Assembly (NCBI GenBank): GCA_028284845.1
Contig: JANQQY010000172.1
Coordinates: 1-44,775, forward strand
Direction: 5' to 3'
From: Spirochaetales bacterium
GTDB lineage: Bacteria; Spirochaetota; Spirochaetia; DSM-27196; SLST01
Length of the DNA: 44,775 bases
Positions 3,371-44,775 of the stretch are shown piece after piece. The position numbers and the translations under genes are program-made. The first letter of the stretch is position 1. Each line of letters begins with the position of its first letter. A model generated the notes under the pieces. The model was not told where the DNA came from. It ran no database searches and saw only the letters and a program-made list of their open reading frames with translations.

Positions 3371-4444
3371 CTACCCGTGGACGACCTGGACCTTGATTGC
3401 GTTTCCGCGCTCAGCGGCGAGCTCGAACGCCTGTGGCGTGTCTTGGAACGGGAAGGTCGCGCTGATCAAGGGACGGACATCGACGCGTCGGGAGGAGAGC
3501 ATGCTCATCGTGAGCGGATAGATGTCGCTGTACCTGAACGAGCCTATGTAGCGAAGCTCCTTGGACATGATGAGGTTCGCAGGTAGCTCTACCGCAGAAG
3601 GGATACTTCCGATCTGGACGATCGTCCCCCCGCGTTTCGCGAGGTCAAGGTTTGCGCGCACCGCGGCCGGAGCACCGGACGCCTCAAACACAATATCGAA
3701 TCCGCCGGTCGCGGCCTGGGTCTCTGCCATCTGTTCGCCCTGGGTGGGGTCGACTGCGTAATCCGCGCCCTGTTCCAGCGCGAATGTCCGTCTAAACTCC
3801 TGAAGATCGCTCACGGTTACGGTTGATGCGCCGAGCGCTCGCGCTGCGAGAGCGACAAACTGTCCGATCGTTCCGCCGCCGGTGACAAGAACATTCGCGC
3901 CGGCGACGCTTCCCGGGCGGGTGACGGCGTGCACGGCCACCGCCAGGGGCTCAAGACATGTTCCCTCGCCCCAGGAGAGATGTTCGGGAACCACGAAACA
4001 GTTCTGGACGGGCACCGTCACATACTCGGCAAAACCGCCATTGATGTGGGGAATCGTTGCAGCGGTTCCGACAAAGCGCAGATTCGTGCAGAGGTTGTGG
4101 CGTCCTGCGCGGCAGTACTCGCAGACGCGACACGGTATTGACGGGTCGATGGCAACGCGCGAACCCACTTTCACGCCAAAGCCTCCGGTGCCGGGCTTGA
4201 TACCCGCAGCGACAGCGTCCGGAACATCGCCCACGGAGAGAACCTCCCCGGCGAGTTCGTGGCCAAGGACGAGCGGTCCCACCGGAACGAACGACCCGAT
4301 CTTCCCGTGGAGGTAGTACTCGATATCGGATCCACAGATGCCAACGGTGTTCACACGAATGAGAACCTCGCCCGGGCCCGGTGAGGGTTCCGATCCCTCG
4401 CGTTCAACAAGCTGTTTTGGACCGTCCAGATAGACTGCTTTCAT
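3371..4444 (-). CDS. Zn-dependent medium-chain alcohol/polyol dehydrogenase (sorbitol / L-idonate / threonine dehydrogenase-like)
   Basis: This is the C-terminal 357 aa of the 637-aa track ORF. ATG at 4444 is preceded by AAGGAG. Catalytic Zn motif GICGSDIEYY..GHELAG, structural Zn cluster CRVCEYCRAGRHNLC and NAD fold VLVTGGGTIG are present. The upstream 280 aa of the track ORF is antisense to the amidase gene and was discarded. Confidence 0.85.
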   Translation of the reverse strand: MKAVYLDGPKQLVEREGSEPSPGPGEVLIRVNTVGICGSDIEYYLHGKIGSFVPVGPLVLGHELAGEVLSVGDVPDAVAAGIKPGTGGFGVKVGSRVAIDPSIPCRVCEYCRAGRHNLCTNLRFVGTAATIPHINGGFAEYVTVPVQNCFVVPEHLSWGEGTCLEPLAVAVHAVTRPGSVAGANVLVTGGGTIGQFVALAARALGASTVTVSDLQEFRRTFALEQGADYAVDPTQGEQMAETQAATGGFDIVFEASGAPAAVRANLDLAKRGGTIVQIGSIPSAVELPANLIMSKELRYIGSFRYSDIYPLTMSMLSSRRVDVRPLISATFPFQDTPQAFELAAERGNAIKVQVVHG

Positions 4445-4546
4445 GTCGACTCCTTCCCCTTTGTACGACGATCTACAAGACTCTGCAATTGCGTTGTTAT
4501 TCTGACAGTGGTAGTCAGAAATAGTGCGGGTATATAGATTCTCCCG

Positions 4547-5536
4547 GTGAAGAGAAAACGAACGGGGAGAGCGGATATCCGCGTTCTTGTTGTTGTTGGA
4601 GCCGTTGCGGTTGCCGGACTTCTTTCGCTTGTGGCAGTGCGTATCGCCGAATCGCGTCGTGAAGCCGCATGGGATGCGGTTCTTCAGGAGGCCCGCGATT
4701 CCACACCGCCTATCATACCCCTGGAAGGGCCGTTTACGGTCGCCATTCAGCCCGGTCATTGGAAGATAGACGAGACGCCTGCTGAGATCCGTCGTCGGCC
4801 GCGAAGCAGCGGCGCCGAGTACGCCGGAGTTCGAGAACTCGATATCAATCTTGCCGTTGTGGATCGGCTCGTGCCTCTGCTCGAGTCCGAAGGATGGGAG
4901 GTCATTGTCATTCCTGCGACGGTGCCTCCCGGCATGCGAGTTGACGCGTTTATCTCCATCCACGCCGATTGGGGCTCGGACATTCGACGAAACGGCTGGA
5001 AGCTCTCGCCACCGTGGAGGCCGAGCGAGGCATCGAGCCTGTTGGCCGCCTCGCTTAAGCAGGCCTTTGCCTCGAGAGAAGAGCTCCGTGAGGATGTCGG
5101 CGGTATCACCGTTGGGATGCGCGCCTACTTCGGCTTCTCCTATCAACGCTATCATCACGCCTCGAGTCCCTACACGCCGGCGACCCTCGTGGAGCTGGGG
5201 TTCGTTACGAATCGAACCGAACGGATCCGAATGTCGACCAACCCGGATTACTACGCTCAGATCTTGTACGAGGGTCTCAAACACTACCGATACACGGTGG
5301 GACGTCCGCAGGCTGAAGCGCTCGTCCCGCGGATCTTCAGCACGATGTTTGTGGGTCCTGAGGGTGCACAGGTTCGGCTCACGCCGGATGCCGACGCGCC
5401 GTGGATTCGTGCGCTTGAGCCTGGAGAGCCGGTGACACCGGTGGACGCCGCCGAAGGCTGGTTCGAGGTTCGGACTCGCAATCCGAATCAGATTGGATGG
5501 GTAGCTGCCGCCGATCTACGGGGCGGCAATTCGTGA
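4547..5536 (+). CDS. N-acetylmuramoyl-L-alanine amidase (Amidase_3 type) with N-terminal membrane anchor and C-terminal SH3-like domain
   Basis: 329-aa ORF with a GTG start and a TM anchor (IRVLVVVGAVAVAGLLSLVAV). Amidase_3-like core: VAIQPGH..E..LDINLAVVDRLVPLLESEGWEVIV...DAFISIHAD. The C-terminal GWFEVRT..GWVAAADL is SH3b-like. Confidence 0.7.
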   Translation: MKRKRTGRADIRVLVVVGAVAVAGLLSLVAVRIAESRREAAWDAVLQEARDSTPPIIPLEGPFTVAIQPGHWKIDETPAEIRRRPRSSGAEYAGVRELDINLAVVDRLVPLLESEGWEVIVIPATVPPGMRVDAFISIHADWGSDIRRNGWKLSPPWRPSEASSLLAASLKQAFASREELREDVGGITVGMRAYFGFSYQRYHHASSPYTPATLVELGFVTNRTERIRMSTNPDYYAQILYEGLKHYRYTVGRPQAEALVPRIFSTMFVGPEGAQVRLTPDADAPWIRALEPGEPVTPVDAAEGWFEVRTRNPNQIGWVAAADLRGGNS

Positions 5537-5552
5537 TCGGCGATGGGCCGTA

Positions 5553-6035
5553 CTACGCACGTCTGCTGAGGATCACTCCTACCAATTGTTCAAGGCAGAT
5601 TTCCCACCCCTCGGTAAAGCCCATCTTCGCATGCGAGTCCCTCGTCTTGATGTTCGCATGCAATGCCCGCGCTCGGTAGCGGGTCCCCGACTCCGCCGGG
5701 TCGAAGGAGATCGCCCCGGTGAAGAAGCTCGAACCCGTGGGTCGGAACCCAGGACCAAGGGCGTCGGTAAAAACCACCAGTCGATTCGGTACAAGGTAGA
5801 GGTAACACCCCGGATCCTTGCTTACATCTCCGTCCGGTGACTCGATGGCGACTGTGAACTCCCCACCCGGTTCCGGTACGGCAACGCAGCTCGCCACGCG
5901 GTAGGGCTCCGGGACGAACCACTCAGCGATCCACTCGGGATCGGTCCATCCTCGATAGAGTTCTTCGGCCTCCACGGGGACGACTCGATCAAGGATCAGA
6001 TCCGTGCTTTTCCTGAACGTAATTGGCTCACTCAT
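5553..6035 (-). CDS. SRPBCC superfamily protein (Aha1/START-like domain)
   Basis: 160-aa ORF. The ..LYRGWTDPEWIAEWF.P.. pattern is typical of Aha1-domain SRPBCC proteins. Its start overlaps the upstream gene stop by 8 nt. Confidence 0.6.
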   Translation of the reverse strand: MSEPITFRKSTDLILDRVVPVEAEELYRGWTDPEWIAEWFVPEPYRVASCVAVPEPGGEFTVAIESPDGDVSKDPGCYLYLVPNRLVVFTDALGPGFRPTGSSFFTGAISFDPAESGTRYRARALHANIKTRDSHAKMGFTEGWEICLEQLVGVILSRRA

Positions 6036-7164
6036 TGGGAACCTCCAATTCGAACGGTTCGCGGAAGATCGAGGTGCCGTTCATTCTCACTTCTATGTAA
6101 TGTGTGCCGCCGTAGAAGTTCTGGTTCTTGAACGGTTTGAAGTGGTGGGTCTTCTCAAGGCGGAGGCTTCCGCCGGCCGCAATGGTCTTGTCCGGCATTC
6201 GGAAAACCTTGTCTTTGTTGGCGCCGTTCGCCTTCCGGAACGCGATGACGTAGTTGAGCGCAAGCTTCCGAGGCTCTTTCACCGCAGACTCGAAGGAGAC
6301 GGCGAACGAGAGAGATTGCCCAAGCGAAAGGGAGCGTGGCGCTATCTCCCGCTCTGTGGCGCTGATGCCGGTAGAATCGTATCCCAACAGTTTGAGCGCC
6401 CCCTGGTGATCCTGTTTTACGAGTGTCCGGAGTGCGTGACGGCTGAGCCAACCGAGCTTCTCGTCCGCTGCGTCCGGCGCATCGTGCCATCGGCGAAGGG
6501 TAGTGACGACGATCTCCGGGTTGTCCTTTGCGATGTCATTGAGATTGTTGGCGACAGATCGGCGAACCATCAGGTTCTCGTCGTCGTAGAGTCGGTCGAG
6601 GAGCGCGATCACCGGTGCTGGATCACTCTGGAACGTCGGCAGCCGGGGAGAGAGCGGAAGCCGGGGTCGCGTCCCTTCGCTCGCGAGTCGGCGTGCGAAG
6701 GGGCTTGGATCGCGCGTGAGATCGGTGAGGAAGGTGAGCGTCTTCTCCGGATAACGAATGAGGAACGGTCTGATGTCGCCCTCCGCGGTGAATCGCTTTG
6801 TCATCTCGTACAACGCGTGCAGAGCCAGATCCGGCTCATCCATTCCATAGGAGCTCACGAACATCGTCAGTGGCATGACGTAGAAGCCCTCGTAGCCCTT
6901 GATCGCGTCTTCCTCCGGTTCCGGACCAAGCGACTTCACCAGAATAGAGACGGCGTCCTCAAAGCGCTCCGGTAGGTAGGCCGCCAGTGCATCACGAATC
7001 TTCTTGGCGCGATCTCCGTAGCTCAACGAGTCGATTCCGGTGCACGACTCGGTGAGGAATCCCTCCTGGTCAAATCCCTTCCACGCCGTTGCGACCTGCG
7101 ATCCTATGAACTCAATACGCTTCCGATTGAAGATCTCTCTGAAGAGGAAGGGTTCGTCGGCCAT
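6028..7164 (-). CDS. DNA alkylation repair-type HEAT-repeat protein (AlkC-like) with C-terminal beta-rich domain
   Basis: 378-aa ORF. The motif RRSVANNLNDIAKDNPEIV and helical repeats resemble the DNA_alkylation (AlkC/AlkD) family. The last ~110 aa are beta-rich, as in Ig-like-domain AlkC proteins. Confidence 0.55.
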   Translation of the reverse strand: MADEPFLFREIFNRKRIEFIGSQVATAWKGFDQEGFLTESCTGIDSLSYGDRAKKIRDALAAYLPERFEDAVSILVKSLGPEPEEDAIKGYEGFYVMPLTMFVSSYGMDEPDLALHALYEMTKRFTAEGDIRPFLIRYPEKTLTFLTDLTRDPSPFARRLASEGTRPRLPLSPRLPTFQSDPAPVIALLDRLYDDENLMVRRSVANNLNDIAKDNPEIVVTTLRRWHDAPDAADEKLGWLSRHALRTLVKQDHQGALKLLGYDSTGISATEREIAPRSLSLGQSLSFAVSFESAVKEPRKLALNYVIAFRKANGANKDKVFRMPDKTIAAGGSLRLEKTHHFKPFKNQNFYGGTHYIEVRMNGTSIFREPFELEVPNE

Positions 7165-8575: not shown

Positions 8576-10924
8576 ATGCGGCACCGGCTCGCGCTCCTGC
8601 TTCTCGCAGCAACACTTCTTCCGCTCAGCGCCCAATCGACAGCCGATACGTTGCCAGCGCCCCTTCTCCTTGACGACGAGTATGTTGCGGATGCCTCCGT
8701 CACGATCGTGAACGATACCGATGTTGTCCTGAACCCCCTGGAGATCATCGAGCTTCTCTCGAGCGTTCTGAATGATCGCTTGCTCAGAGATGCCGACGGC
8801 CTCTTCCGGGAAGGCGAGCTGACCCAACCTGATGCTCTTGATCCGCTTGGCATCCAGATACGGTTCGACTGGGACGAGCTTGCCTTGATCGCGACCGTCC
8901 CACCGTTGGCCCGGCGGCCGGAGCGGATCTCGCTCCGTGGACGCCCGCCGGTCCCCCAGGGAACTCCGGTGAGTCCTGCGCCGTTCAGCATCATCGCCAA
9001 CCTCGATCTCTGGTCTCGCTACACCTACGAGAGCGCGCTCTTTGAGATTGCCCTGACGCCCGACCTGGCCGCCTCCATCTACGGTGCGGTCGTCGAGGTT
9101 CGAAGCGGGATTCGGACCGGCGACGCCCCCTTCTTCGTTGATCACGCTCGAGCCTCGTGGGACTTCGCCTCGATTGGCTACCGTATTCAGGGTGGTGATC
9201 TTGTCTACCGGGGCAGTCAGCTGCAGAATGCTACGCGCCTCACCGGCGTCGGCTTCTTTCAAGAGGACTCCATCGCGCTCCCGGGCAACGCCGTCTCCGA
9301 CGTTATAGAACGCTTCTACCTCGCCGAGGATGCGAGCGTCTCGGTTTTTGTGAACGAGTCGCGGGTTCATCGGCGAACTCTCGACGCGGGGAACTACGAA
9401 CTGAGCGACCTTCCGCTGGGAGACGGGATCAACACGATCCTGGTCGTGTGGGAAGACACCGAAGAGCGGCTTGTCGAGTTGGTCATTCCCTACGATAGCG
9501 AACTGCTGGATGCGGGCGAGTTTGACGCCGGCGTTGCTCTGGCAATCGCCGAGCTACAGTTCGCGCGTCCGGTCATCGTTGGATATCAGTACTACGGCCT
9601 CACGCCTCAGCTGACCATCGGATCTCGCCAGGGAATAGAGCTTCTCGACCTTCAGGTCGACGCCGGGCTCAATGCGACGCTCGCCACGCGTGCAGGATCG
9701 TTTATTCTGGAACCCAGCCTTGGATTTGGGCCGCAGTCGAGACTCGTTCTTGATATCCCGTTGCGGTACTCATTTCTCAACTCGAGTCCCTCCTCGTACC
9801 TCAGCTTCGGCCTCTCAGGCGCGTATCGCTCGGCCCGTGCACAAGATGGGGCGACGACCACCCACACCGTTTCCGCCAACGGTTACGTGAACTTCGCCCT
9901 CCCTGATGGATTCTCTGTGACGCCTCGACTCTCCTACGTCTACGGGCAGCTTGATAGTCCGCACGTCGTTGAGGGGCGAGTAGCGCTTCGTCGGTCACTT
10001 CGTGGTGGGTCGACCGTCTCCGCGGATCTGGGACTTCGATGGGATAGCGAGCCCTCGTTCTTGGCACGCGTGACGTATTCGGCCTCTTTTCCGGACGCTC
10101 AGCAGAATCTATTCTTGCAGCAGGATCTTGAGGCGCAGGAGCTGACTGCGTACTGGAGTCGGTATGCCGGTGAGTCGGCGCAAGACATCGACTACAGCGT
10201 CTCCGCCAAGGTGCCTGTTGATTTTGCTGAGGTCATGAACGTGAGCGGCAGAGTTGGATACATCAGCCCGTGGTTTCGAGGCAGCCTTTCGCACGGACTT
10301 ACCGGGATCGTCGAGGCTTCTGACCTTCGAAACAGCACCTCGGTTTCTGCGCAGACCGCGCTTGTCTATGCAGACGACACCTTTGGCGTGAGTCTTCCGG
10401 TAAACGACTCATTTGTGATCGTCGTTCCCGGCGAGACACTCGCCGATCAGCCCGTCCTCGTCTCCAGGTCAGGAGCACGCGCTGATCTCACGCTCGACGG
10501 CTCAAGCGGAGTCATGGGCGATCTGAGTTCGTACTCTCCCGTCGCGATTCGCGTCCAGCCCGAGGAGATCCTCTTAGGTCTCGAACAGAGCGAGCTCGTC
10601 TACGTCGTGGATCCGGGCTATCGCTCGGGCACGGTCATCCGTGCCGAACCGACGCGCAACATCTACGCCGGCGGAGTTCTGCTTGACGAGAACGATGAGC
10701 CGATCGTCTACGCGCTCGGTCGTTACGAATCCGACCTTGAAGACTCGGGCGAATTCTTCACCGACGAGGGCGGATACTTTGAGATCTACGGCCTTGGGCC
10801 AGGTCGGTACACGCTTTTGATCTCGAACGGCGCTGAGTATCGCTTTGCCGTCACGATCCCACCGGAGGCGAACGAGTACGTCGACCTAGGCGAAATCTCC
10901 CCGGCGGCAGGAGCGTCGCAATGA
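8576..10924 (+). CDS. Outer-membrane usher-like protein with C-terminal carboxypeptidase-regulatory-like beta-sandwich
   Basis: 782 aa with signal peptide MRHRLALLLLAATLLPLSAQS. It has the usher-like stretch VFVNESRVHRRTLDAGNYELSDLPLGDGINTILVVWEDTEERLVELVIPYD, then a long beta-rich middle with alternating aromatic/polar residues. C-terminal GGYFEIYGLGPGRYTLLISNG. It sits between the chaperone and the second subunit. Confidence 0.6.
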   Translation: MRHRLALLLLAATLLPLSAQSTADTLPAPLLLDDEYVADASVTIVNDTDVVLNPLEIIELLSSVLNDRLLRDADGLFREGELTQPDALDPLGIQIRFDWDELALIATVPPLARRPERISLRGRPPVPQGTPVSPAPFSIIANLDLWSRYTYESALFEIALTPDLAASIYGAVVEVRSGIRTGDAPFFVDHARASWDFASIGYRIQGGDLVYRGSQLQNATRLTGVGFFQEDSIALPGNAVSDVIERFYLAEDASVSVFVNESRVHRRTLDAGNYELSDLPLGDGINTILVVWEDTEERLVELVIPYDSELLDAGEFDAGVALAIAELQFARPVIVGYQYYGLTPQLTIGSRQGIELLDLQVDAGLNATLATRAGSFILEPSLGFGPQSRLVLDIPLRYSFLNSSPSSYLSFGLSGAYRSARAQDGATTTHTVSANGYVNFALPDGFSVTPRLSYVYGQLDSPHVVEGRVALRRSLRGGSTVSADLGLRWDSEPSFLARVTYSASFPDAQQNLFLQQDLEAQELTAYWSRYAGESAQDIDYSVSAKVPVDFAEVMNVSGRVGYISPWFRGSLSHGLTGIVEASDLRNSTSVSAQTALVYADDTFGVSLPVNDSFVIVVPGETLADQPVLVSRSGARADLTLDGSSGVMGDLSSYSPVAIRVQPEEILLGLEQSELVYVVDPGYRSGTVIRAEPTRNIYAGGVLLDENDEPIVYALGRYESDLEDSGEFFTDEGGYFEIYGLGPGRYTLLISNGAEYRFAVTIPPEANEYVDLGEISPAAGASQ

Positions 10925-11871
10925 GAGGGAAGGCGAGGGCAGCGGCGTTCGTATGCATGATCGTAGCATCCTCAGGACTCCACGCCGCCGACATCTTCCG
11001 GTTCTACGCGCCACCCGGAGGTGTCTATGGCAATGCGGCTTTCGAGCGCGATGAGACGATCACCGTCTCAGTGACGATCGAGCACGAAGGCGTCGCGATT
11101 TCCGATTGGTTTCTGGCAATCACCACAGGCGGCGCCGGCTCATTCGAACCTCGCGAGATGTCCCAGAGCACCGACACGCTTGAGTATCAGATCTATGGGA
11201 GCACGCCGCCGTCGGCAGATATTCTCAAGGCTCCACCGGATGTTCTCACCGCCGCCAACGTCGTAACTTCGGGAGACTTCGCCTCCGTCGCCGCCACGAC
11301 GGAACGAGTCGCGTTCACGCTCTACTTCTCCATACCGTCGGCACAGTTCGTCCCATCGGGCGAGTACACGGACACCGTCTCGCTCGAACTCTATACCGGC
11401 GAGTTTGGTTCTCCGGGGACCCACGTTCTCGTTGACACCGTGGATGTCACCGTCACCGGCCGAATGGCTCAGATCGTCGACCTCTACGCAGATCGAGAGC
11501 CCGGGATCCGCTCGCTCGACCTGACGGCGACAGCCACTAACTTCCTGATCGCGACCGTCTTTGAACGAAGCAACTCGTTCACCGGCTACACCGTGACGGT
11601 GCAGAGCGTCAATCTGGCTGCAGACCTCTCCGGCGCTACCGGCCCCTTCTTTGCGCACACCACAGCATCCGACACACTCGACTATTCCCTTACCTACGGC
11701 GGCGCACCGGTCGCCGGATGGGCCGGTGGTTCTGCGACGTTGACCGACTCAGCGGCCACCACCGCGCCGGAGTGGATCGACCGCGAACTCCGGATCTCGT
11801 ACAGCGGCTCTTCCACGCTCGCGGCGGGCGACTATGAGGACAGGCTCGTCATCACGATTACGGCGAAGTAA
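10921..11871 (+). CDS. Secreted two-domain SCPU-like subunit (candidate tip/adhesin subunit)
   Basis: ATGA overlap with the usher stop. Signal peptide (AAAFVCMIVASSGLHA). It carries an internal strand motif VPSGEYTDTVSLELY (about nt 11353-11394) and a terminal AAGDYEDRLVITITAK, both resembling the C-terminus of the 7301-7816 subunit. Confidence 0.6.
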   Translation: MRGKARAAAFVCMIVASSGLHAADIFRFYAPPGGVYGNAAFERDETITVSVTIEHEGVAISDWFLAITTGGAGSFEPREMSQSTDTLEYQIYGSTPPSADILKAPPDVLTAANVVTSGDFASVAATTERVAFTLYFSIPSAQFVPSGEYTDTVSLELYTGEFGSPGTHVLVDTVDVTVTGRMAQIVDLYADREPGIRSLDLTATATNFLIATVFERSNSFTGYTVTVQSVNLAADLSGATGPFFAHTTASDTLDYSLTYGGAPVAGWAGGSATLTDSAATTAPEWIDRELRISYSGSSTLAAGDYEDRLVITITAK

Positions 11872-33578: not shown

Positions 33579-33615
33579 GCCGCGGCGGACCATCTGAAAG
33601 AACTCAGCGACTTTT

Positions 33616-33770
33616 GGGTAGTGTCACGAAGCCTGTTGGTCCACATCGAATAGATCACGGTGCGCGGGAGAGATGCTCGCATCGACACTGCAACTCGCAG
33701 CACCATACCTCGTAGCTCGTTCTGCCCAAATGACCTGCACTCGGTCGGACCAACAGGCTTCGTGACACTT
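33616..33770 (-). repeat. MITE-like 155-nt element, copy A (perfect 23-bp terminal inverted repeats)
   Basis: AGTGTCACGAAGCCTGTTGGTCC (33620-33642) is the exact reverse complement of 33747-33769. The whole 155 nt aligns gap-free with the reverse complement of 43457-43611. The terminal 27 and 24 nt are identical and the 104-nt interior is about 79% identical (82/104 by hand count). The strand label only marks orientation relative to copy B. Confidence 0.8.
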
Positions 33771-33778
33771 TGGAACGC

Positions 33779-37757: not shown

Positions 37758-39014
37758 ATGGATGACCCAGGACTACTGGTGCAGACCGCCCTCATGGCGG
37801 TCTTGCTCCTGTTCTCCGCTTTCTTCTCTGGCTCAGAGACAGCCTTCTTCTCGCTCAATAGCCTTGAAAAGGACGCTCTTCGGACGCGAACGCGTGGCAA
37901 GCGCAGGACTGTCGTCGCGGTTCTCTTCCGTCAACCCGACGAAGTCCTGGTTACGATCCTGACGGGGAACATGTTCGTGAACATCTTCTCCACCTCAATC
38001 TCAGAGGCACTTGGTGCCCGATTCTTCGGCGAGTCGGCCGAACTCATTTCCATCGCCGCCATGACCCTCACGCTTTTGATCGTTGGCGAGATGACGCCCA
38101 AGAACTTCGCCATTCGCCACTCGCTCGGATTCTCCGTCTTTGCCGAACGCATTCTCAACCTCATCTATCCCGTGCTCCGTCCCATCGTTGTGCCCCTCGG
38201 TGCGATACGGAAGCTGGTCCTCTCGGCCTATCCGGAGAATCGCCGGGCCGATGCGGAGGCTCGAAACCTCGCTGTTCTCTCTGCGATTCGTATGGGATTT
38301 GAGAACGATACGATCGACCAATCGGAGCTCGCCCTCCTGGAGCGCTTCTTTCGGTTTCGTGAGAAGACCGCCGCCGATGTCATGATCCCGCGGATCGACC
38401 TGGTCTCGGCAGACGCCGCGAGCAGCGTCGACGAGCTCATTGAGAAGCTGCGTGACAATACGATTGGCAGTGACGTCGATCTTATTCCGCTCCACAAGTC
38501 CGATCTCGACCACATCACCGGCTACGTCAGACGGGTCGACCTCGTCTCCTATCGGGTGCGCGGCGAGACCGATGTACGCCTTGCAAAGCTCTCTCGCGAC
38601 GTCTACGCGGTTCCGGCCTCCAAGCCGCTTCGGGAACTCGCGGTTGAGATGATCAACAGCAGTGCGGACCTCTCTGTCGTCGTTGATGAGTACGGGGGCA
38701 CGCTTGGCGTCGTGAGCTACACGGCAATGGTCGACTATCTCTTCGACACCTTCCGCAGACCTGAAGATCGTGCGGTCCGGCTCTCATCGGACGGCATCTA
38801 CCGATTCGCCGGCTCGGTGGAGATCAAGGACGTGGAGGAGACACTTGGTGTCGAGTTCGGGTGTGACGCACGCACGATCGGCGGAATGATCGTCGAGCGG
38901 CTCGGAGAGCTCCCCGCTGTCGGGGACTCGGTAGAGTGCTTTGGATACACCCTCACCGTGAGCGAGTCCGACGGACGACGCGCCTCAGTGATTGAGGCGA
39001 GGCCCGGTGCATGA
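37758..39014 (+). CDS. CNNM/CorC/HlyC-family protein (DUF21 TM domain, CBS pair, CorC_HlyC domain), paralog 1
   Basis: The N-terminal ..LLFSAFFSGSETAFFSL.. is the DUF21 signature. Also ..VGEMTPKNFA.., a CBS region (..ADVMIPRIDLV..) and a C-terminal transporter-associated domain. Confidence 0.85.
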   Translation: MDDPGLLVQTALMAVLLLFSAFFSGSETAFFSLNSLEKDALRTRTRGKRRTVVAVLFRQPDEVLVTILTGNMFVNIFSTSISEALGARFFGESAELISIAAMTLTLLIVGEMTPKNFAIRHSLGFSVFAERILNLIYPVLRPIVVPLGAIRKLVLSAYPENRRADAEARNLAVLSAIRMGFENDTIDQSELALLERFFRFREKTAADVMIPRIDLVSADAASSVDELIEKLRDNTIGSDVDLIPLHKSDLDHITGYVRRVDLVSYRVRGETDVRLAKLSRDVYAVPASKPLRELAVEMINSSADLSVVVDEYGGTLGVVSYTAMVDYLFDTFRRPEDRAVRLSSDGIYRFAGSVEIKDVEETLGVEFGCDARTIGGMIVERLGELPAVGDSVECFGYTLTVSESDGRRASVIEARPGA

Positions 39015-40237
39015 TCTGGATTGCCATTGCTGGGTGTACCCTTGCCGCTTCGTTCTTCGCGGGGCTTGAGACCGGGCTCGTGAGCGCGAATCAATTCTCG
39101 CTCTACGCAAAAAAAGAGAAGGGCATCCTCTACGCACGCGCCGCCGACTTTCTGCTTCTCAAGCCGGAGCGTCTCCTATCAACCACGTTGATAGGAACCA
39201 ATATTTCGGTCGTCACCTCGGCGACGCTCCTCGCCAATTTCCTACGCCAGAGCGGCCCGGAGTGGTCGCGGTGGGTCGGGAGCATCGGGCTCGCCGTCGC
39301 GATGCTCATCTTCTCCGAAGTCGTTCCCAAGTCGTTCTTCCGACAGAATGCGGATACGGTTGCGGTCAGGCTCGCGCCGGTCCTCGTTGTCTTTTTTGTA
39401 CTCTTCTCGCCGCTCGCACTGATTCTGAATACGATTGTGAAAGGAATCCTCTGGATCACCGGACAGCTCGAGTCGAGTAACGAGGCGGTTAGTTCACGAC
39501 AGTCGCTTCGAACGCTTGTTCGCCTCAGCAGCCGGGAAGCCGGCATCCCCCTTGAGGACCAACGGATCGTTGAGGACATCTTCGACTTTCAGGATACCCT
39601 CGCACGCGAAGTGATGATTCAGATTCATCGGACGCTCTCCTGCCCCCGGTCAATGGATCATAAAGAGATTGTGATGCGAGCGACCGAGTGGAACGTTCGC
39701 TTTGTGCCGATCTACGACCAGAGAATCGACAATGTCTTGGGGTTCATCGATATTGCCGAGCTTGCCGTCTCTCCGTCGCTCGAACTCGATGAGATCATCC
39801 ATCCGCCTCGGTTCTTTCCCGACACAAAGCCAATACCCGACCTCCTTCTGGCCATGAACTCGGAGAAGCTTCGTGTCGTCTTCCTTTCGAATGAATACGG
39901 TCGCATCTCAGGAATCATCACCCCCACCGAGATCGTGGGAGAGATCATGGAGCGGCGGCCGGGTGGGACCGGACACCGGCTTGAAATTCGGCCGCTCGAG
40001 GAGGGCGGATATTCGATTCTGGGGCTTGCGGACGTAGAGGACGTGCGCCACGTTGCGGGAGTCATGATTCCTGACGGACCGTATGACACGCTTGGCGGGT
40101 ACCTCCTGACGCGCTTTGGCCGCATCCCGGAAGTGAATGAGTCGATTGCTGACGACAACGTCACCTACGTGGTAGAGGATCGTGACGATCTCCATATCAA
40201 GAGGGTGCGTGTGACGCCAACCACCGCGCCTGCATAG
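39011..40237 (+). CDS. CNNM/CorC/HlyC-family protein, paralog 2
   Basis: ATGA overlap with paralog 1. ..SFFAGLETGLVS.., ..FSEVVPKSFF.., CBS region (..REVMIQIHRT..) and a C-terminal CorC_HlyC-like domain. Confidence 0.85.
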   Translation: MIWIAIAGCTLAASFFAGLETGLVSANQFSLYAKKEKGILYARAADFLLLKPERLLSTTLIGTNISVVTSATLLANFLRQSGPEWSRWVGSIGLAVAMLIFSEVVPKSFFRQNADTVAVRLAPVLVVFFVLFSPLALILNTIVKGILWITGQLESSNEAVSSRQSLRTLVRLSSREAGIPLEDQRIVEDIFDFQDTLAREVMIQIHRTLSCPRSMDHKEIVMRATEWNVRFVPIYDQRIDNVLGFIDIAELAVSPSLELDEIIHPPRFFPDTKPIPDLLLAMNSEKLRVVFLSNEYGRISGIITPTEIVGEIMERRPGGTGHRLEIRPLEEGGYSILGLADVEDVRHVAGVMIPDGPYDTLGGYLLTRFGRIPEVNESIADDNVTYVVEDRDDLHIKRVRVTPTTAPA

Positions 40238-40275: not shown

Positions 40276-41214
40276 CTACAGTTCGGCGATGAACTGCAGA
40301 ATGATCTCGCCCGTGATCTCGGGCCACTCAACATGAGGCAGATGCCCGCACTCCGGTATTGCCTGGAGTGAGCTACCCGGGATCGCCCGATTGAACCGGG
40401 CCGCCCAACTGAAGTCGAGTACTCGATCCTCTGCGCCCCAGATGATAAGCGTCGGGACATCGATCGATCGCAGTTCCTCCGGCTCAAGATGATCGGTGAC
40501 GACGTGGCGTGTGATGCTTGCGAGCGCCGGGAGTGCGTTCTCCGTGTGGAACGTTGCATTGGCAAGGTAGTTCACATAGTCGTCAGGAATACGATCGGGA
40601 TTGGCGAAGACCTGCGTGCGGATCGCCGCCCGCATGACAGTCTCGTTGTGGAGTGTCATTCCGGCGTCCACAAGCATGCCGGTATCCGCCAGGAACTCGA
40701 TGATCGCGCCCGCCTCGTCCGGTAGGCCATACGGCGCGATCAGGATCAGCGCCTCGAGCCCGGATGGGTCTCTCGATGCGAATCGCGAAGCGATCATGCC
40801 ACCCATCGAATGCCCAACAAGGACGTAGCGCTCCAGCTCAAGCGCTTCGAGGAACGCTTCAAGGAATGCGACATAGCCGTCCAGCGTGTAGACGGTGTCG
40901 CGCTTCTGCGAGTATCCGCTCCCAGGGAGGTCGGGAGCAATCAGGCGCGTCTGAGAGCCAAGGCCCTCCCGCAAGAAACGTGCCTCGAAACCGGTCCCCG
41001 AATACCCGTGCACCAGGACGATAGGCGTCCTCTGGAGTTCGGTGCCGGGATAGTCGATGTAGTGAATGCGGTCGCCGCCAATGTCGAGGAAGCCGGCGTA
41101 GTCTTCGGGGTAGCTTTCGACAACAAGAGCCTCGTTTGACGCGCACGAGAAGACCAGCGCCGACGTGATGATTGCCAATCCGGCTCGGACGAGGGCTCTA
41201 TTGTAGTTCTTCAT
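40276..41214 (-). CDS. Alpha/beta-fold hydrolase, probable lipoprotein
   Basis: ATG at 41214 gives MKNYNRALVRAGLAIITSALVFSC (lipobox-like VFSC). Nucleophile elbow GHSMGG and a C-terminal ..CGHLPHVE.. His. The track start at 41259 is GTG without an SD. Confidence 0.8.
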   Translation of the reverse strand: MKNYNRALVRAGLAIITSALVFSCASNEALVVESYPEDYAGFLDIGGDRIHYIDYPGTELQRTPIVLVHGYSGTGFEARFLREGLGSQTRLIAPDLPGSGYSQKRDTVYTLDGYVAFLEAFLEALELERYVLVGHSMGGMIASRFASRDPSGLEALILIAPYGLPDEAGAIIEFLADTGMLVDAGMTLHNETVMRAAIRTQVFANPDRIPDDYVNYLANATFHTENALPALASITRHVVTDHLEPEELRSIDVPTLIIWGAEDRVLDFSWAARFNRAIPGSSLQAIPECGHLPHVEWPEITGEIILQFIAEL

Positions 41215-41329
41215 CTGCTCAGCCGATTTGAGTCTACCATCCTGGGAGTCTTCCGCCACCTGCCGAGGGATTAGTCATCAAAATGTTACAATCGACAGAA
41301 ATCTTGGTTCATACCAGAAGGAGAGGCGA

Positions 41330-41995
41330 ATGAAAACGGAGATTCAAGGCAGTCCGTCGTTCAGTCACGTCCACATCGATCTCTCGCCCGGCGAGAGAGT
41401 CATCGTTGAGGCGGGGGCGATGCAGTCGATGTCGGCAGAGCTCGGCATGAAGGCGAAGTCGAACGGCGGATTCTTCTCGGCACTTGGCAAAAAGGTGTTT
41501 GGCGGTGAGTCGTTCTTTGTGAATCACTTCACCAATGAGTCGAGCGCTCCGCAGCGGGTGACGATTGCCCAGGACGTTCCCGGTGAAGTGATTGAGATGC
41601 AGATTCGAGAGGGACAGGACATTTCGTTGCAGCGCGGCACCTACCTTGCGAGCACGGATGGCGTACGGATTAAGACAAGCTGGGCCGGATTCGTGAGCTG
41701 GTTTTCCGGCGAGGGGCTGGTCAAGCTCAGGGCGACGGGAAGCGGCACACTCTGGTTCGGTGCCTACGGTGGCATCGTCACCCGCGAGGTGCGAGGCGAC
41801 CTCAAGGTCGACGATGGTCATCTCGTTGCCTATGACTCGAGTCTGAAGCTCAAGCTTGCGCTTGCGGGTGGACTCTTCGCGAGCATGTTTGGTGGAGAGG
41901 GTCTTGTCACACGACTCATTGGCAACGGGACGGTCTACATCCAGACTCGTAGCATCAAAGGCCTGGCCTCATGGCTCAATCCAAAGTTCCGGTAG
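41330..41995 (+). CDS. AIM24/TIGR00266-family protein, paralog 1
   Basis: ATG at 41330 after AAGGAGAGG. Family motifs ..VEAGAMQSMS.., FGGESFFVNHFT, WFSGEGLVKLRATGSGTLWF and FGGEGLVTRLIGNGTVYIQT. Confidence 0.8.
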   Translation: MKTEIQGSPSFSHVHIDLSPGERVIVEAGAMQSMSAELGMKAKSNGGFFSALGKKVFGGESFFVNHFTNESSAPQRVTIAQDVPGEVIEMQIREGQDISLQRGTYLASTDGVRIKTSWAGFVSWFSGEGLVKLRATGSGTLWFGAYGGIVTREVRGDLKVDDGHLVAYDSSLKLKLALAGGLFASMFGGEGLVTRLIGNGTVYIQTRSIKGLASWLNPKFR

Positions 41996-42004
41996 GAGGG
42001 TCGC

Positions 42005-42691
42005 ATGAACGTTGAAATCTTGACACGTCCCGCGAATGCGGCTGCGAAGGTGAGTCTCGGTTCCGGTGAGACCTGCACGACGGAGGGCGGCGCAATGATC
42101 GCGATGTCGTCCGATATGAGCGTTGATACCCGCGTCAGCAAGAAAGAGGGAGGCGGTCTCCTCAAGGGCCTTGCCCGTCGTCTTGGCGGCGAAGGCATCT
42201 TTATGAACCACTTCACTGCCGGTGGATCTGGTGGTGAGCTTTACCTGGCATCGCCGTTGCCGGGCGACATGGAGGTCATCGAGCTCGATGGGGCACACGG
42301 ACTCCAGGTGCAGAATTCCAGCTTTGTTGCGCACGAGACCGGCGTTGAGATGAACATCAGCTGGGGTGGTGCCAAGAACCTCTTCAGCGGTGAAAGCCTG
42401 ATCTGGCTCAGCATGACAGGCAGAGGGAAGGTCATCATCAACGCGTTTGGTGCCATCTATCCGGTAGAGGTCGACGGCGAATACATCGTTGATACCGGCA
42501 ACATCGCCGCCTTTGAGGACACTCTCGAGTTCAAGATCAGCAAGGGCGGACGTACCCTTGTCGGGGCCTTTGCCGGTGGTGAGGGTCTCGTCTGCCGCTT
42601 CCAGGGGATGGGCACTGTCTGGTGTCAGACACACGCCGATCGCGCCTTTGGTGCGAAGCTCACCCCGCACCTCGTCCCAAAGAAGAACTAA
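42005..42691 (+). CDS. AIM24/TIGR00266-family protein, paralog 2
   Basis: AGGAGGG SD. ..TEGGAMIAMS.., LGGEGIFMNHFT, LFSGESLIWLSMTGRGKVII and AGGEGLVCRFQGMGTVWCQT. Confidence 0.8.
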   Translation: MNVEILTRPANAAAKVSLGSGETCTTEGGAMIAMSSDMSVDTRVSKKEGGGLLKGLARRLGGEGIFMNHFTAGGSGGELYLASPLPGDMEVIELDGAHGLQVQNSSFVAHETGVEMNISWGGAKNLFSGESLIWLSMTGRGKVIINAFGAIYPVEVDGEYIVDTGNIAAFEDTLEFKISKGGRTLVGAFAGGEGLVCRFQGMGTVWCQTHADRAFGAKLTPHLVPKKN

Positions 42692-42701
42692 GGAGCATCT
42701 C

Positions 42702-43388
42702 ATGACGACAGAACGGACAGACTTTCCACATGAGATCGTTGCCGCTCCTGACTACGGTATGGTGAACGTGACGATACCGGCCGGCAAGACGCTCCAAGTC
42801 GAAGCGAGTGCCATGGCATGGATGGATTCGTCCCTCACCATGAAAACCAAGATGAAGGGCGGACTGAAGCGCCTTCTGACCGGCGAGAAGCTCTTTATCA
42901 ACAGCTTCACCGCGGAGAGTGAGCAGGCTGCGATCGGGATTGCCCCGGGTACGCCCGGAGATCTCGCCCACGTCTACCTCGAGAACGAGACCATCTTTCT
43001 GCAAAACTCCTCCTACCTCGCCTCGAGTCCTGAGCTCGAGGTGGCCGCCGAGTTCCAAGGCTTCAAGGGGTTCTTTTCCGGAGAGAAGCTCTTTATGGTC
43101 CGATGCTCCGGAACCGGCGATCTCTGGTTCAACACCTTTGGATCGATCATCGAGATCGATGTGACCGGGAACTACGTCGTTGATACCGGCCATATCGTAG
43201 GGTTCACGGAAGGACTCTCCTTCGACGTGCGCCCCGTGGCCGGGATGAAGAGCCTCTTCTTCTCCGGCGAAGGTCTCGTCTGCCGCTTCAGCGGCCAGGG
43301 AAAGGTCTGGATTCAATCGCGCAAGAATCCGGCATTCATCCGATGGGCCGATCAGTTCCGCAGGGTTGAGAAGAAGAACGACTCGTAG
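42702..43388 (+). CDS. AIM24/TIGR00266-family protein, paralog 3
   Basis: ATG at 42702 after AAGGAG. ..VEASAMAWMD.., LTGEKLFINSFT, FFSGEKLFMVRCSGTGDLWF and FSGEGLVCRFSGQGKVWIQS. Confidence 0.8.
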   Translation: MTTERTDFPHEIVAAPDYGMVNVTIPAGKTLQVEASAMAWMDSSLTMKTKMKGGLKRLLTGEKLFINSFTAESEQAAIGIAPGTPGDLAHVYLENETIFLQNSSYLASSPELEVAAEFQGFKGFFSGEKLFMVRCSGTGDLWFNTFGSIIEIDVTGNYVVDTGHIVGFTEGLSFDVRPVAGMKSLFFSGEGLVCRFSGQGKVWIQSRKNPAFIRWADQFRRVEKKNDS

Positions 43389-43456
43389 ATCCATTGGCCG
43401 GTCGCGATTCACTGTCGCGGCCGGCTACGTTCCATTGGGAAGCGGCATGTCTTGCG

Positions 43457-43611
43457 AAGTGTCACGAAGCCTGTTGGTCCGACCGAATGCAGGTCCTTTA
43501 GGCAGAGCGAGTTGCGAGGCATCGTGCTGCGAGCTGCAGAGTCGATGAGCGTATCTATCGCGCGCGTCGTAATCTAACCGAAATGGACCAACAGGCTTCG
43601 TGACACTACCC
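43457..43611 (+). repeat. MITE-like 155-nt element, copy B (inverted relative to copy A)
   Basis: GTGTCACGAAGCCTGTTGGTCC (43459-43480) is the reverse complement of 43585-43606. The full element matches the reverse complement of 33616-33770 (see copy A). Confidence 0.8.
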
Positions 43612-43711
43612 ACGTCTTGGCGGTAGGGATAGGGCCTCACTCAGAGCGTGCCACGCATTTTGTACCTTTTTACTTGACTATCTAAAGTGACTTACTGTAC
43701 TAATAGCGCAT

Positions 43712-43918
43712 ATGAAAGTCGTGGTTAATGGAACGGAGAAGGATCTCACCGACGGGCTGACGGTCATCAAGCTCCTGGAGCAGGAGAACATTGAGTCTCC
43801 CGATATGGTGAGTGTTCAGGTAAACCGCAAGATTCTTCAGCGTGAGGCCTTTGACACCACCGAGTTGCAGGACTCGGACTCCATCGAGTTTCTCTACTTC
43901 ATGGGCGGAGGCGCGTAG
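43712..43918 (+). CDS. ThiS/MoaD-family ubiquitin-like sulfur-carrier protein with C-terminus ..GGGA
   Basis: 68 aa: MKVVVNGTEKDLTDGLTVIKLLEQ...VNRKILQRE......DSDSIEFLYFMGGGA. This is the ThiS length and pattern, but with one residue after the Gly-Gly. The next gene starts on the nucleotide after its stop. Confidence 0.75.
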   Translation: MKVVVNGTEKDLTDGLTVIKLLEQENIESPDMVSVQVNRKILQREAFDTTELQDSDSIEFLYFMGGGA

Positions 43919-44775
43919 ATGCCCTTCAGTGACGATCAGGTTCAACGATACAGCAGACATATTCTGCTCAAAGGTGTTGGCGGCAAGGGGCAGCGGAAGC
44001 TTCTCCAGTCCCGCGTCCTCGTTGTTGGAACGGGCGGCCTTGGTAGCCCTATTTCGCTCTATCTCGCCGCCGCAGGCGTCGGTACCATTGGTCTCGTCGA
44101 TGCGGATACCGTCGATCTCTCAAATCTCCAGCGCCAGGTGATCCACCATACGCCCGATGTTGGCAGGCCCAAGGTTGAATCGGCGGCCGCAAAGATCGCT
44201 GAGATCAACCCCGATGTGACTGTCGAGACGCACAACTACCGGATCAATGCGGAGAACGCGATTGATCTCGTCTCACGCTACGACTTCATCATCGAGGGCA
44301 CGGACAATTTCCCCACCAAGTTTTTGGTCAATGATGCCTGCATCCTGGCAGACCGCCCCTTCAACCAGGGCGGAATCCTTCGGTTTCAAGGCCAGACGAT
44401 GACTCATGTTCCCGGCAGCGCGAGCTATCGGTGCGTCTATCCGTCGCCACCGCCGGCCGGCGCGGTTCCAACCTGTAGTGAGGCCGGCGTCCTTGGCGCC
44501 GTTGCGGGAATGCTCGGAACGATGCAGGCGACTGAGGCGCTCAAGTACCTCCTTGGCATTGGAGAGCTCCTCGTCAATCGCGTGCTCTTCTTTGACGCGC
44601 TTACGATGCAGCAGCGCATCGTGGATGTGCAGCCAACCGAGTACGGGGCCGTCGCTGCGCAGAATACGAAGATCACCGAGCTGGTCGAGTACGAACAGGG
44701 TGCCTGCGACCTCGACCTTGAGCAGCAGTACGGTGCGCCCAAAGTCGCGGTCGATTCGATCTCTGTAGGCGATTC
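43919..44775 (+). CDS. ThiF/MoeB/MoeZ-family E1-like adenylyltransferase; 3' end beyond window
   Basis: Absent from the ORF track because it has no stop in the window. It reads MPFSDDQVQRYSRHILLKGVGGKGQRKLLQSRVLVVGTGGLGSPISLYLAAAGVGTIGLVDADTVDLSNLQRQ.. and ..YRCVYPSPPPAGAVPTCSEAGVLG... It is still open after 285 codons. Confidence 0.88.
   Translation, partial: MPFSDDQVQRYSRHILLKGVGGKGQRKLLQSRVLVVGTGGLGSPISLYLAAAGVGTIGLVDADTVDLSNLQRQVIHHTPDVGRPKVESAAAKIAEINPDVTVETHNYRINAENAIDLVSRYDFIIEGTDNFPTKFLVNDACILADRPFNQGGILRFQGQTMTHVPGSASYRCVYPSPPPAGAVPTCSEAGVLGAVAGMLGTMQATEALKYLLGIGELLVNRVLFFDALTMQQRIVDVQPTEYGAVAAQNTKITELVEYEQGACDLDLEQQYGAPKVAVDSISVGD

Follow-up and report, generated by a model that had tools for sequence, protein, structure and literature searches.

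The window analysed here, the whole stretch of 44,775 nt from a contig of a Spirochaetales bacterium, contains three consecutive genes for proteins of the AIM24 family. This raises the question if the three genes are recent copies of one another or encode the parts of one assembly, and which role such an assembly could play. The sequence-only reading of the locus had described three tandem genes for proteins of 221-228 aa, separated by gaps of 9 nt (A-B) and 10 nt (B-C), each with its own Shine-Dalgarno sequence, divergent from an alpha/beta hydrolase gene and directly followed by a MITE-like copy. Coordinates and spacing bear this out, the hydrolase gene was confirmed on the opposite strand, and the inverted-repeat element after C was found together with a second copy (Table 1). 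Paralog C starts at the ATG of MTTERTD. The GC content of the operon is the same as that of its flanks. Between positions 41000 and 43800 the promoter consensus scan gave no promoter-like site, and the terminator consensus scan gave a single terminator-like site, which lies inside gene A and is fewer than expected by chance. No Rfam match was obtained at E <= 0.1 from position 41000 to 44775, the MITE-like element included. This element is not part of the AIM24 module; it may terminate the transcript of the operon.

Table 1. Features of the AIM24 locus. Positions are those of the window; the Shine-Dalgarno sites were read from the sequence.
Feature	Positions	Strand	Details
Second MITE-like copy	~33615-33775		opposite orientation, about 85-92% identical
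Divergent alpha/beta hydrolase gene	40276-41259	-	
Shine-Dalgarno of gene A, AAGGAGAGG	41318-41326	+	3 nt ahead of ATG
AIM24 paralog A, orthogroup A	41330-41995	+	221 aa; PF01987 E 8.8e-61; TIGR00266 207 bits
Shine-Dalgarno of gene B, AGGAGGG	41994-42000	+	overlaps A stop codon
AIM24 paralog B, orthogroup B	42005-42691	+	228 aa; PF01987 E 7.3e-60; TIGR00266 186 bits
Shine-Dalgarno of gene C, AAGGAG	42690-42695	+	overlaps B stop codon
AIM24 paralog C, orthogroup C	42702-43388	+	228 aa; PF01987 E 1.6e-61; TIGR00266 210 bits
MITE-like element	43443-43622	.	terminal inverted repeats 24-38 nt, directly after operon; arms 43443-43480 and 43585-43622

The assignment of the three proteins to AIM24/TIGR00266, which had been proposed from the sequence alone, was confirmed by HMM searches. 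All three match full-length and far above the curated cut-offs, with 203-208 bits against PF01987 (E 1e-60 to 1e-61, profile positions 2-205 of 205, cut-off 25.7 bits) and 186-210 bits against TIGR00266 (cut-off 96.6 bits). The Gly-Glu motifs quoted in that reading are all present and fall into invariant alignment columns. Outside of them the proteins are indeed strongly diverged, since pairwise identity among A, B and C is only 33-38% (33% for A-B and 36% for B-C). Within each AIM24 protein a TRAP-like beta-sandwich is repeated three times, as indicated by the comparison of the repeats with hhalign (R1/R2 E 1.2e-9, R2/R3 E 2e-7, R1/R3 E 1.5e-4). In A, B and C every repeat has one conserved G-E motif and a hydrophobic 'G-F/L-x-x-F-G-G-E' loop. 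Using the window proteins as references of the three orthogroups, E60, E128 and E190 (A numbering) and the flanking glycines reach 90% conservation or more in each of them (~230 sequences), and the window proteins keep every family-wide invariant residue.

For A, AF2 predicts an all-beta structure (pLDDT 82) with three tandem TRAP-like repeats as in 1YOX and 1PG6. The only significant PDB matches of this model in Foldseek are 1pg6 and 1yox (E 5e-16; TM 0.70-0.72 query-normalised, 0.73-0.80 target-normalised), and these are also the only solved complexes containing the AIM24 fold that sequence and Foldseek searches of the PDB to April 2026 revealed. By sequence A is the paralog closest to PA3696 (PDB 1yox, E 5e-33), followed by B (E 3.5e-25) and C (E 3e-21). 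No signal peptide was found in A, B or C, none of their invariant residues looks catalytic, and the orthogroups have median pI values of 5.5-6.1. The whole family comprises ~3,200 representative clusters at 50% clustering. At the N-terminus of other members zinc ribbons, GYF_2 or TPR are found; in our own interpretation these may be cytoplasmic interaction modules.

We looked for the triplet in 80 GTDB species loci, the best 80 of at least 382 matches. In ~73 of these 80 loci A-B-C is found in constant order and on one strand; the loci without this intact order are contig ends or contain broken ORFs, and apart from such cases no locus was seen that keeps only one or two of the genes. The triplet spans at least 10 named phyla or classes, including Spirochaetota, Verrucomicrobiota, Acidobacteriota, Planctomycetota, Proteobacteria and Bacteroidota, and the median gaps across the loci are 11 nt (A-B) and 10 nt (B-C). 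The window proteins are 49-87% identical to their own orthologues in other genomes, also those of other phyla, and for A such orthologues occur in 80 or more genomes. Identity within the orthogroups is 0.60-0.63 versus 0.34-0.37 between them. In a neighbour-joining phylogeny of subsampled sequences each orthogroup is monophyletic with bootstrap values of 98/100/100, B and C being recovered in 100 of 100 NJ bootstraps. N-terminal strands and C-terminal tails are conserved and specific to each orthogroup. In other phyla the C subunit has an additional N-terminal domain, either GYF_2 or a domain of ~75 aa without assignment; the N-terminal extension of the gammaproteobacterial C proteins shows a sub-threshold likeness to the C-terminal domain of ribosomal L7/L12 (E 0.059). 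This recurrence of three orthogroups across phyla is far beyond chance, and because of the cross-phylum orthologues and the monophyly A, B and C are not recent duplicates. A lack of co-conservation in relatives, which the sequence-only reading had named as the observation that would speak against its conserved stoichiometric triplet, was looked for in this survey and not found.

New in this study is a peptidase gene that lies directly upstream of A in 58 of the 80 loci (again the best 80 of at least 382), at a median gap of 3 nt and with many overlaps of 4 or 11 nt. PGAP-annotated examples of this arrangement are found in Flammeovirga and Aureibacter. AF2 models the encoded protein as a PH-like (DUF7092) domain followed by a single TM helix and then an M48 zinc peptidase domain, the latter resembling 3c37 and BepA, to which the model is matched by Foldseek. 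HExxH and the distal Glu are invariant. We use the term M48-AIM24 operon for a DUF7092/PH-like, TM and M48 gene followed by AIM24 A-B-C. The positive-inside rule (K+R of 4 versus 2 for the N-flank) holds in 83% of 226 sequences; a second strongly hydrophobic segment is present in 36% of the peptidases, which makes the topology uncertain. Prediction places the M48 domain in the periplasm and the AIM24 proteins in the cytoplasm, so that any coupling between them would have to pass via the PH-like domain or the membrane.

The same genes were also approached from the side of the peptidase. Three AIM24 genes follow the M48 orthologues in 3 of 3 cases, and a single AIM24 gene precedes more distant M48 relatives in 3 of 3. 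AIM24-M48 coupling is therefore seen in two independent gene architectures, peptidase then three AIM24 genes and one AIM24 gene then peptidase. No paper combining AIM24 with M48 and none mentioning DUF7092 was found in the literature. The idea that the PH-like domain is a disguised AIM24 repeat which could insert into an AIM24 ring was ruled out by hhalign (probability <=0.3%).

Of the M48-AIM24 operon the window contains orthogroups A, B and C in order. By tblastn no M48 homologue was found across the 44.8-kb window or in the loci L001-L011, and the called genes near the triplet of L081 include none either. A linked M48 gene is thus missing from the window and from the 12 nearest of the sampled relatives (L001-L011 and L081, among the best 80 of at least 382), and for the window locus the protease link is therefore indirect. 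It is possible that an unlinked M48 copy exists elsewhere in this genome; no Spirochaetales DUF7092-M48 copy is named among the best 120 relatives of the query from L030, a Spirochaetota-labelled MAG. With dN/dS values of 0.05-0.08 between the window and L081, the triplet is under strong purifying selection also in this M48-less clade. The window is a well-conserved, ordinary member of the triplet class that belongs to the minority form without a linked peptidase.

Within ~6 kb around the triplet of the window ABC-2 permeases, two CNNM genes, the alpha/beta hydrolase gene and a ThiS-like ORF are found. From its CNNM, exporter and lipoprotein neighbours an association with the envelope or membrane had been argued, and this argument found no support. 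Among the best 80 of at least 382 loci synteny of the CNNM pair is limited to L081, the single closest relative, where two CNNM/CorC cation-transporter genes lie immediately ahead of the triplet; the hydrolase recurs solely in L001, and the ThiS neighbour in none. No other part of the window's gene surroundings is conserved. The genes 5' of other M48-less triplets are mutually unrelated (GH3 glycosidase, ribonucleotide reductase, deacetylase, nucleotidase, GHMP kinase, DUF3108). The window neighbours were therefore rejected as functional partners. A membrane-proximal role is nevertheless plausible, because the membrane-anchored M48 gene joins the operon in those 58 of the 80 other genomes (best 80 of at least 382). 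A search for amphipathic membrane-binding segments had been suggested as a check; a C-terminal membrane-binding helix was considered and rejected, the tails being 12-20 residues long, conserved per orthogroup and not convincingly amphipathic. Possibly these tails form a contact between subunits.

How might the three proteins act together? Their fixed order and the monophyly of the orthogroups make an A:B:C hetero-oligomer the most economical reading. In a model based on 1YOX, single-gene AIM24 proteins form homotrimeric rings of nine repeats with a flat face (PMC6677890). Diverged paralogs that are co-inherited in a set order imply an asymmetric, heteromeric version of it; A, B and C would be ancient, non-interchangeable subunits of one AIM24 assembly, a 1:1:1 heterotrimeric counterpart of the homotrimeric ring. 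The missing signal peptides and the lack of catalytic-looking invariants make it most likely that this ring serves in the cytoplasm as a scaffold or adaptor without enzymatic activity. In most lineages it would be co-translated with the inner-membrane protease (cytoplasmic PH-like/DUF7092 domain, one TM, BepA/Oma1-type M48) and may dock on or regulate it from the cytoplasmic side, and the outcome would be a module for quality control of membrane or envelope proteins or for stress. For the M48-unlinked Spirochaetales clade, purifying selection despite the missing protease gene points either to a core function at the membrane that does not need the protease or to an unlinked partner. A proteomic study (PMC9694704) lists a Leptospira AIM24 protein, LIC11636, among surface-exposed proteins, and this is hard to reconcile with a location in the cytoplasm only. 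Taken as a whole, we give this explanation, a cytoplasmic A:B:C scaffold ring tied to a membrane protease and quality control, about even chances.

Alternatively, A, B and C could each be homo-oligomeric like PA3696, carry out separate related tasks and be adjacent through co-regulation only. The family members with solved structures come from single genes, 1yox consists of six identical chains, and PA3696 is sister to orthogroup A in the tree, so that A-like proteins can act alone. In addition, neither a natural A-B-C gene fusion nor direct interaction data were found. However, separate tasks do not account well for a 1:1:1 copy number, order and strand that are kept across phyla at translationally coupled spacing, for the absence of one- or two-gene loci besides contig ends and broken ORFs, or for the terminal segments particular to each orthogroup. 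Moreover, M48 pairs with either one AIM24 gene or the full set of three, which is the pattern to be expected when a homotrimer is replaced by three paralogs. We regard separate homo-oligomers as rather unlikely.

A further possibility is compatible with the A:B:C scaffold ring and not mutually exclusive with it. The ring could be a TRAP-like sensor of small molecules or ions, in which the Gly-rich loops and the invariant Glu residues close over a cation or amine and thereby control the protease or ion homeostasis. TRAP itself, which binds tryptophan and RNA, is an 11-mer of a single-domain protein. Every AIM24 repeat resembles the TRAP beta-sandwich, and both are assembled or modelled as rings of 9-11 units (PMC6677890). 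The one invariant Glu per repeat follows a low-confidence loop (pLDDT 53-54), and the 1yox chains in the structure library cover 186-209 of 250 residues, which suggests disordered loops; the hydrophobic loops could be ligand lids instead of membrane or interface elements. The CNNM/CorC genes ahead of the triplet in L081 would fit to this, and AIM24 genes beside TerD-type stress genes are mentioned in PMC5822837, which cites Anantharaman et al. 2012. On the other hand, no AIM24 protein has a known ligand, and the CNNM synteny is confined to that one relative. Ter genes are absent from the ~6 kb around the window locus, and in the 80 loci (best 80 of at least 382) the conserved neighbours include no Ter-type cluster. 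A, B and C have no Pfam match except AIM24 at E <= 0.01, hence none to the TRAP family, TRAP is not among the 50 best Foldseek PDB matches listed, and, unlike TRAP, the AIM24 triplet is without trp-operon context. A sensor of this kind seems quite improbable to us.

The MITE-like repeat that abuts the operon, and AIM24 homologues on some plasmids and in two phage records, could indicate a mobile defence or toxin module, for example of beta-rich membrane-disrupting effectors. But A, B and C find no match in PADLOC-DB at E <= 1, so a defence system is not supported, and no integrase or other defence gene is present among the scanned neighbouring gene families. The plasmid matches that bear the triplet are non-mobilizable replicons of 295-640 kb, the neighbours are of housekeeping type and unrelated between lineages, and uniform GC content and low dN/dS also argue against it. 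We consider such a module very improbable. Finally, although tandem paralogs are common in bacterial genomes, a chance recent local duplication without special meaning is refuted by the co-conservation, the identities within and between the groups (33-38% between the paralogs vs 49-87% to orthologues, other phyla included) and the monophyly, and its probability is next to nil.

Which known systems are comparable? PA3696 (1YOX) and SpyM3_0169 (1PG6) share family, fold and three TRAP-like repeats per chain with the window proteins. They stand alone and are modelled as homotrimers (PMC6677890), whereas the window has three diverged, co-inherited paralogs in fixed order, and they are single genes, whereas the triplet set is tied to an M48 peptidase gene in most lineages. 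Like the window proteins they have no known function. That bacterial members are without assigned function, as the sequence-only reading stated, agrees with a paper from 2019, in which the physiological function of bacterial AIM24 members is called entirely unknown (PMC6677890), and no report on it was found in the literature after 2019.

HflK/C-FtsH and stomatin-NfeD are bacterial scaffold-protease operon pairs, and Oma1, BepA and HtpX are stress-activated M48 proteases. By analogy, the M48-AIM24 operon may follow the logic of the first two, an oligomeric, non-catalytic, membrane-proximal assembly being encoded with a membrane-anchored protease. The AIM24 fold differs from that of SPFH proteins, the AIM24-linked peptidase has the distinctive N-terminal PH-like/DUF7092 domain, and the window locus itself is without a protease gene.

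Among eukaryotes, yeast Aim24, a stabiliser of MICOS and respiratory supercomplexes, and Arabidopsis PAWH1/PAWH2, stabilisers of the Hrd1 ERAD complex (PMC6677890), have the Pfam domain in common with the window proteins. They are non-enzymatic, membrane-associated stabilisers of membrane protein complexes (PMC3975624, PMC6677890, PMC10203443), and the yeast protein resists carbonate extraction from the inner membrane even though it has no TM helix (PMC3975624). The role of PAWH1/PAWH2 in membrane protein quality control parallels the bacterial link of AIM24 to a membrane protease. In contrast to the window proteins, which are bare domains with short tails, eukaryotic AIM24 proteins are equipped with targeting sequences or C-terminal TM helices and have other partners; MICOS and Hrd1 are not known from bacteria. 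The kinship is one at family level, with the shared domain as its established part.

More tentatively, one may go a step further. An AIM24 ring, either a homotrimer (in single-gene lineages) or A:B:C, would regulate or scaffold Oma1/BepA-like M48 membrane proteases from the cytoplasm via their PH-like DUF7092 domain and form an ancient, widespread stress or quality-control module, from which the functions of eukaryotic Aim24 and PAWH descended and of which the Spirochaetales form is a protease-unlinked derivative. We regard this combined proposal as possible, though doubtful in all its parts together.

The finding says less about the window itself than about the family. That A-B-C is kept as a fixed set across at least 10 named phyla or classes favours an asymmetric, heteromeric ring over a homotrimer, and the neighbouring M48 gene is the first functional clue for bacterial AIM24 members. 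This link suggests a theme in common with the eukaryotic homologues, which act in the stabilisation of membrane complexes and in ER-associated degradation. The A-B-C set and its coupling to M48 make the AIM24 family testable, for example in the culturable Cellvibrio, Flammeovirga, Agarilytica and Leptospira.

The sequence-only reading had described three tandem AIM24/TIGR00266 paralogs (A, B and C), and the sequence of the window agrees: the genes are spaced by 9 nt (A-B) and 10 nt (B-C), each with its own Shine-Dalgarno sequence. All three proteins match PF01987 (AIM24) over the entire profile (E 1e-60 to 1e-61) and TIGR00266 far beyond the trusted cut-off, which confirms the family assignment, and the Gly-Glu motifs quoted in that reading fall in invariant alignment columns. 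With 33-38% pairwise identity they retain every family-wide invariant residue, and they are unremarkable representatives of a known family; annotated genomes already give such proteins as 'TIGR00266 family protein'.

Features of the AIM24 operon and its surroundings in the window
Feature	Position	Strand	Remarks
MITE-like element, first copy	33615-33775		about 160 nt; opposite in orientation to the second copy
CNNM/CorC-type transporter genes, tandem pair	37758-39014, 39011-40237		CNNM, CBS and CorC_HlyC domains; 4-nt overlap
Alpha/beta hydrolase	40276-41259	-	lipoprotein-like N-terminus ...ITSALVFSC; between CNNM pair and triplet
Shine-Dalgarno of A	41318-41326	+	AAGGAGAGG
AIM24 paralog A	41330-41995	+	ORF, 221 aa
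Shine-Dalgarno of B	41994-42000	+	AGGAGGG; overlaps stop codon of A
AIM24 paralog B	42005-42691	+	ORF, 228 aa
Shine-Dalgarno of C	42690-42695	+	AAGGAG; overlaps stop codon of B
AIM24 paralog C	42702-43388	+	ORF, 228 aa; start is the ATG of MTTERTD
MITE-like element, second copy	43453-43613		about 160 nt
ThiS-family ORF	43712-43918		68 aa; downstream of MITE-like element

Profile-profile comparison of the thirds of the alignment (R1/R2 E 1.2e-9, R2/R3 E 2e-7, R1/R3 E 1.5e-4) shows, at the level of sequence, that A, B and C are each an internal triplication, in line with a published account that sees three TRAP-like beta-sandwich repeats in the AIM24 crystal structures (PMC6677890). Early in each repeat there is one polar residue (E27, Q101, D161), and a short Gly- and Phe-rich helix or loop closes the repeat, with an invariant Glu (E60, E128, E190) after it. 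The AF2 model of A is all-beta (pLDDT 82), and the loops before the second and the third Glu are precisely where its confidence falls to 53-54. Foldseek searches with this model returned only 1pg6 and 1yox, so that there is no solved complex with the AIM24 fold (PDB up to April 2026). Conservation reaches 90% or more, with one identical residue in the orthogroups A, B and C, in 23 columns; this residue is mostly Gly, and none of the columns looks catalytic. Neither a signal peptide nor a hydrophobic helix was found in A, B or C. Each orthogroup keeps its own N-terminal strand and its own C-terminal tail of 12-20 residues, different from those of the other two, which may be the signature of specific subunit contacts.

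The closest homologues of A belong to Spirochaetota (Spirochaetales MAGs, Oceanispirochaeta, Alkalispirochaeta), which identifies the window as spirochaete DNA. Sampling one genome per GTDB species, we compared the best 80 loci of at least 382 hits, which come among others from Spirochaetales, Leptospirales, Verrucomicrobiota, Lentisphaerota, Planctomycetota, Acidobacteriota, Gamma- and Betaproteobacteria, Bacteroidota, Sumerlaeota and Fibrobacterota. A-like, B-like and C-like genes follow in this order on one strand in about 73 of these 80 loci (ORFs and BLAST), with median gaps of 11 nt (A-B) and 10 nt (B-C); at the exceptions (L015, L071, L072, L075 and a few with a truncated C gene) a contig ends or an ORF is broken. 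Identity inside the orthogroups is 0.60-0.63 on average (minimum 0.44) and between them 0.34-0.37 (maximum 0.44). In the neighbour-joining tree A is monophyletic in 98 and B and C each in 100 of 100 bootstraps, and the stand-alone protein PA3696 (1yox) is sister to orthogroup A. Judged from these comparisons, the triplet is an ancient unit and not a set of recent duplicates. They clearly contradict the outcome that the sequence-only reading had named as refuting, a triplet not kept together in related genomes. In the Bryobacterales locus L072 the C gene seems to be broken into two parts (9388-9735 and 10920-11237) about 1.2 kb apart, possibly due to an insertion.

ORF clustering of the 80 loci revealed one dominant flanking family, a same-strand gene coding for about 380-400 aa which ends right before A and is present in 58 of them (tblastn). 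It is separated from A by a median of 3 nt, and overlaps of 4 or 11 nt are frequent, which indicates translational coupling. The encoded protein is a Peptidase_M48 with invariant HExxH motif and distal Glu. Its AF2 model (pLDDT 87) comprises a seven-stranded PH-like domain (residues 8-83), a long TM helix (91-127) and the M48 domain, the last of these with matches to 3c37 and E. coli BepA. Matches of the N-terminal domain to PH domains are weak; Pfam names this domain DUF7092 in more distant M48 relatives. In 83% of 226 M48 sequences the TM helix is flanked by four K+R on the N side versus two on the C side, which would put the PH-like domain on the cytoplasmic side of the membrane and the peptidase domain outside; this topology is in some doubt, as 36% of the sequences contain a second hydrophobic segment.

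The PGAP annotation of two cultured Cytophagales (Flammeovirga kamogawensis, Aureibacter tunicatorum) has three 'TIGR00266 family protein' genes after an 'M48 family metallopeptidase'. Looked up from the peptidase side, all three orthologues (Agarilytica, Corallincola and a Lentisphaeria MAG) have three AIM24 genes after them, and all three more distant relatives (30-33% identity) have a single AIM24 gene before them, about equidistant from A, B and C. The AIM24-M48 link thus exists in two independent arrangements, as expected if three paralogs replace a homotrimer. In metagenomic bacteria (L088-L090, about 4151-6149) one AIM24 gene of 227 aa precedes a DUF7092-type M48 gene, often near DUF3332, DUF3015 and Lnb_N-domain genes. 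In two Flavobacteriales loci a same-strand ORF of 382 aa takes the usual M48 position upstream of A: by Pfam the ORF of L077 (6727-7875) has PAS plus SpoIIE/PP2C-phosphatase domains, and that of L080 (6734-7882) resembles it in size and position.

No M48 gene was found beside the triplet in the window or its 12 closest sampled relatives (L001-L011 and L081, A 60-85% identical), nor anywhere else in the 44.8-kb window. A linked M48 gene is also missing in Lentisphaerota, some Bacteroidota and one member each of Leptospirales, Planctomycetota and Gammaproteobacteria, and among the flanking genes of the M48-less loci no substitute conserved neighbour was found. dN/dS between the window and L081 is 0.075, 0.060 and 0.046 for the three proteins, at a dS of about 1.2, which is near saturation; by this measure A, B and C of the window are clearly functional without a linked protease.

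The divergent hydrolase and the MITE-like copy after C are present as had been claimed. The hydrolase is also divergent and upstream of the triplet in L001 (49% identity) and is absent from the closest relative L081, where the CNNM pair directly precedes the triplet; its position looks like a local insertion or rearrangement. The CNNM link was not seen beyond L081, nor the hydrolase link beyond the window and L001. The two MITE-like copies, one directly after the operon and the other inverted about 10 kb upstream, have perfect terminal inverted repeats of 24-28 nt (AGTGTCACGAAGCCTGTTGGTCC...) and are about 85-92% identical throughout; the copy at 43453-43613 has no Rfam match. The ThiS ORF is not conserved beside the triplet in any other locus.

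An N-terminal GYF_2 domain is part of subunit C in Verrucomicrobiota and Planctomycetota. In Gamma- and Betaproteobacteria (L035:9370-10305, L053:9505-10524, L049:9371-10324 and similar loci) its place in C is taken by a domain of about 75 aa without significant Pfam match (sub-threshold similarity to the L7/L12 C-terminal domain, E 0.059). Zinc ribbons, GYF_2 or TPR are joined to AIM24 domains in other parts of the family; in our reading these would be cytoplasmic protein-interaction modules and would fit an adaptor or scaffold in the cytoplasm. Yeast Aim24 is carbonate-resistant at the inner membrane without a TM helix and stabilises MICOS (PMC3975624), and Arabidopsis PAWH1/2, for which a model of a flat homotrimeric ring exists, act as stabilisers of the Hrd1 ERAD complex (PMC6677890). 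TerD genes adjoining AIM24 genes are on record (PMC5822837). A surface-proteome study counts LIC11636, an AIM24-domain protein of L. interrogans, as one of ten 'core surface proteins', and the protein is part of a diagnostic chimera (PMC9694704). This listing conflicts with a cytoplasmic location and is odd for a family without signal peptide. Surface-protein lists often contain abundant cytoplasmic proteins.

In the best-supported model A, B and C would assemble 1:1:1 into a heterotrimeric ring of nine repeats, a cytoplasmic, membrane-proximal and non-enzymatic scaffold. In most lineages the ring would work with the DUF7092-TM-M48 protease, possibly contacting its PH-like domain, and would probably serve protein quality control in the membrane or envelope, or the sensing of stress; in the spirochaete clade of the window it would work without a linked protease. 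A role of the ring as ligand sensor was considered and is compatible with this model. Separate homo-oligomers of A, B and C were considered as well. A mobile defence or toxin module is disfavoured by the lack of any PADLOC match to A, B or C (E <= 1), the even GC content across the operon region and the low dN/dS. Chance duplication is refuted by the co-conservation of the triplet in relatives.

In the searchable literature no description was found of the division into A/B/C orthogroups, of how widely it spans the phyla, or of the recurrent DUF7092-M48 coupling. The mechanism is inferred, and the window has the form without the informative M48 partner. Together, the coupling and the A/B/C set provide a first functional handle on the widespread AIM24 family of unknown function.
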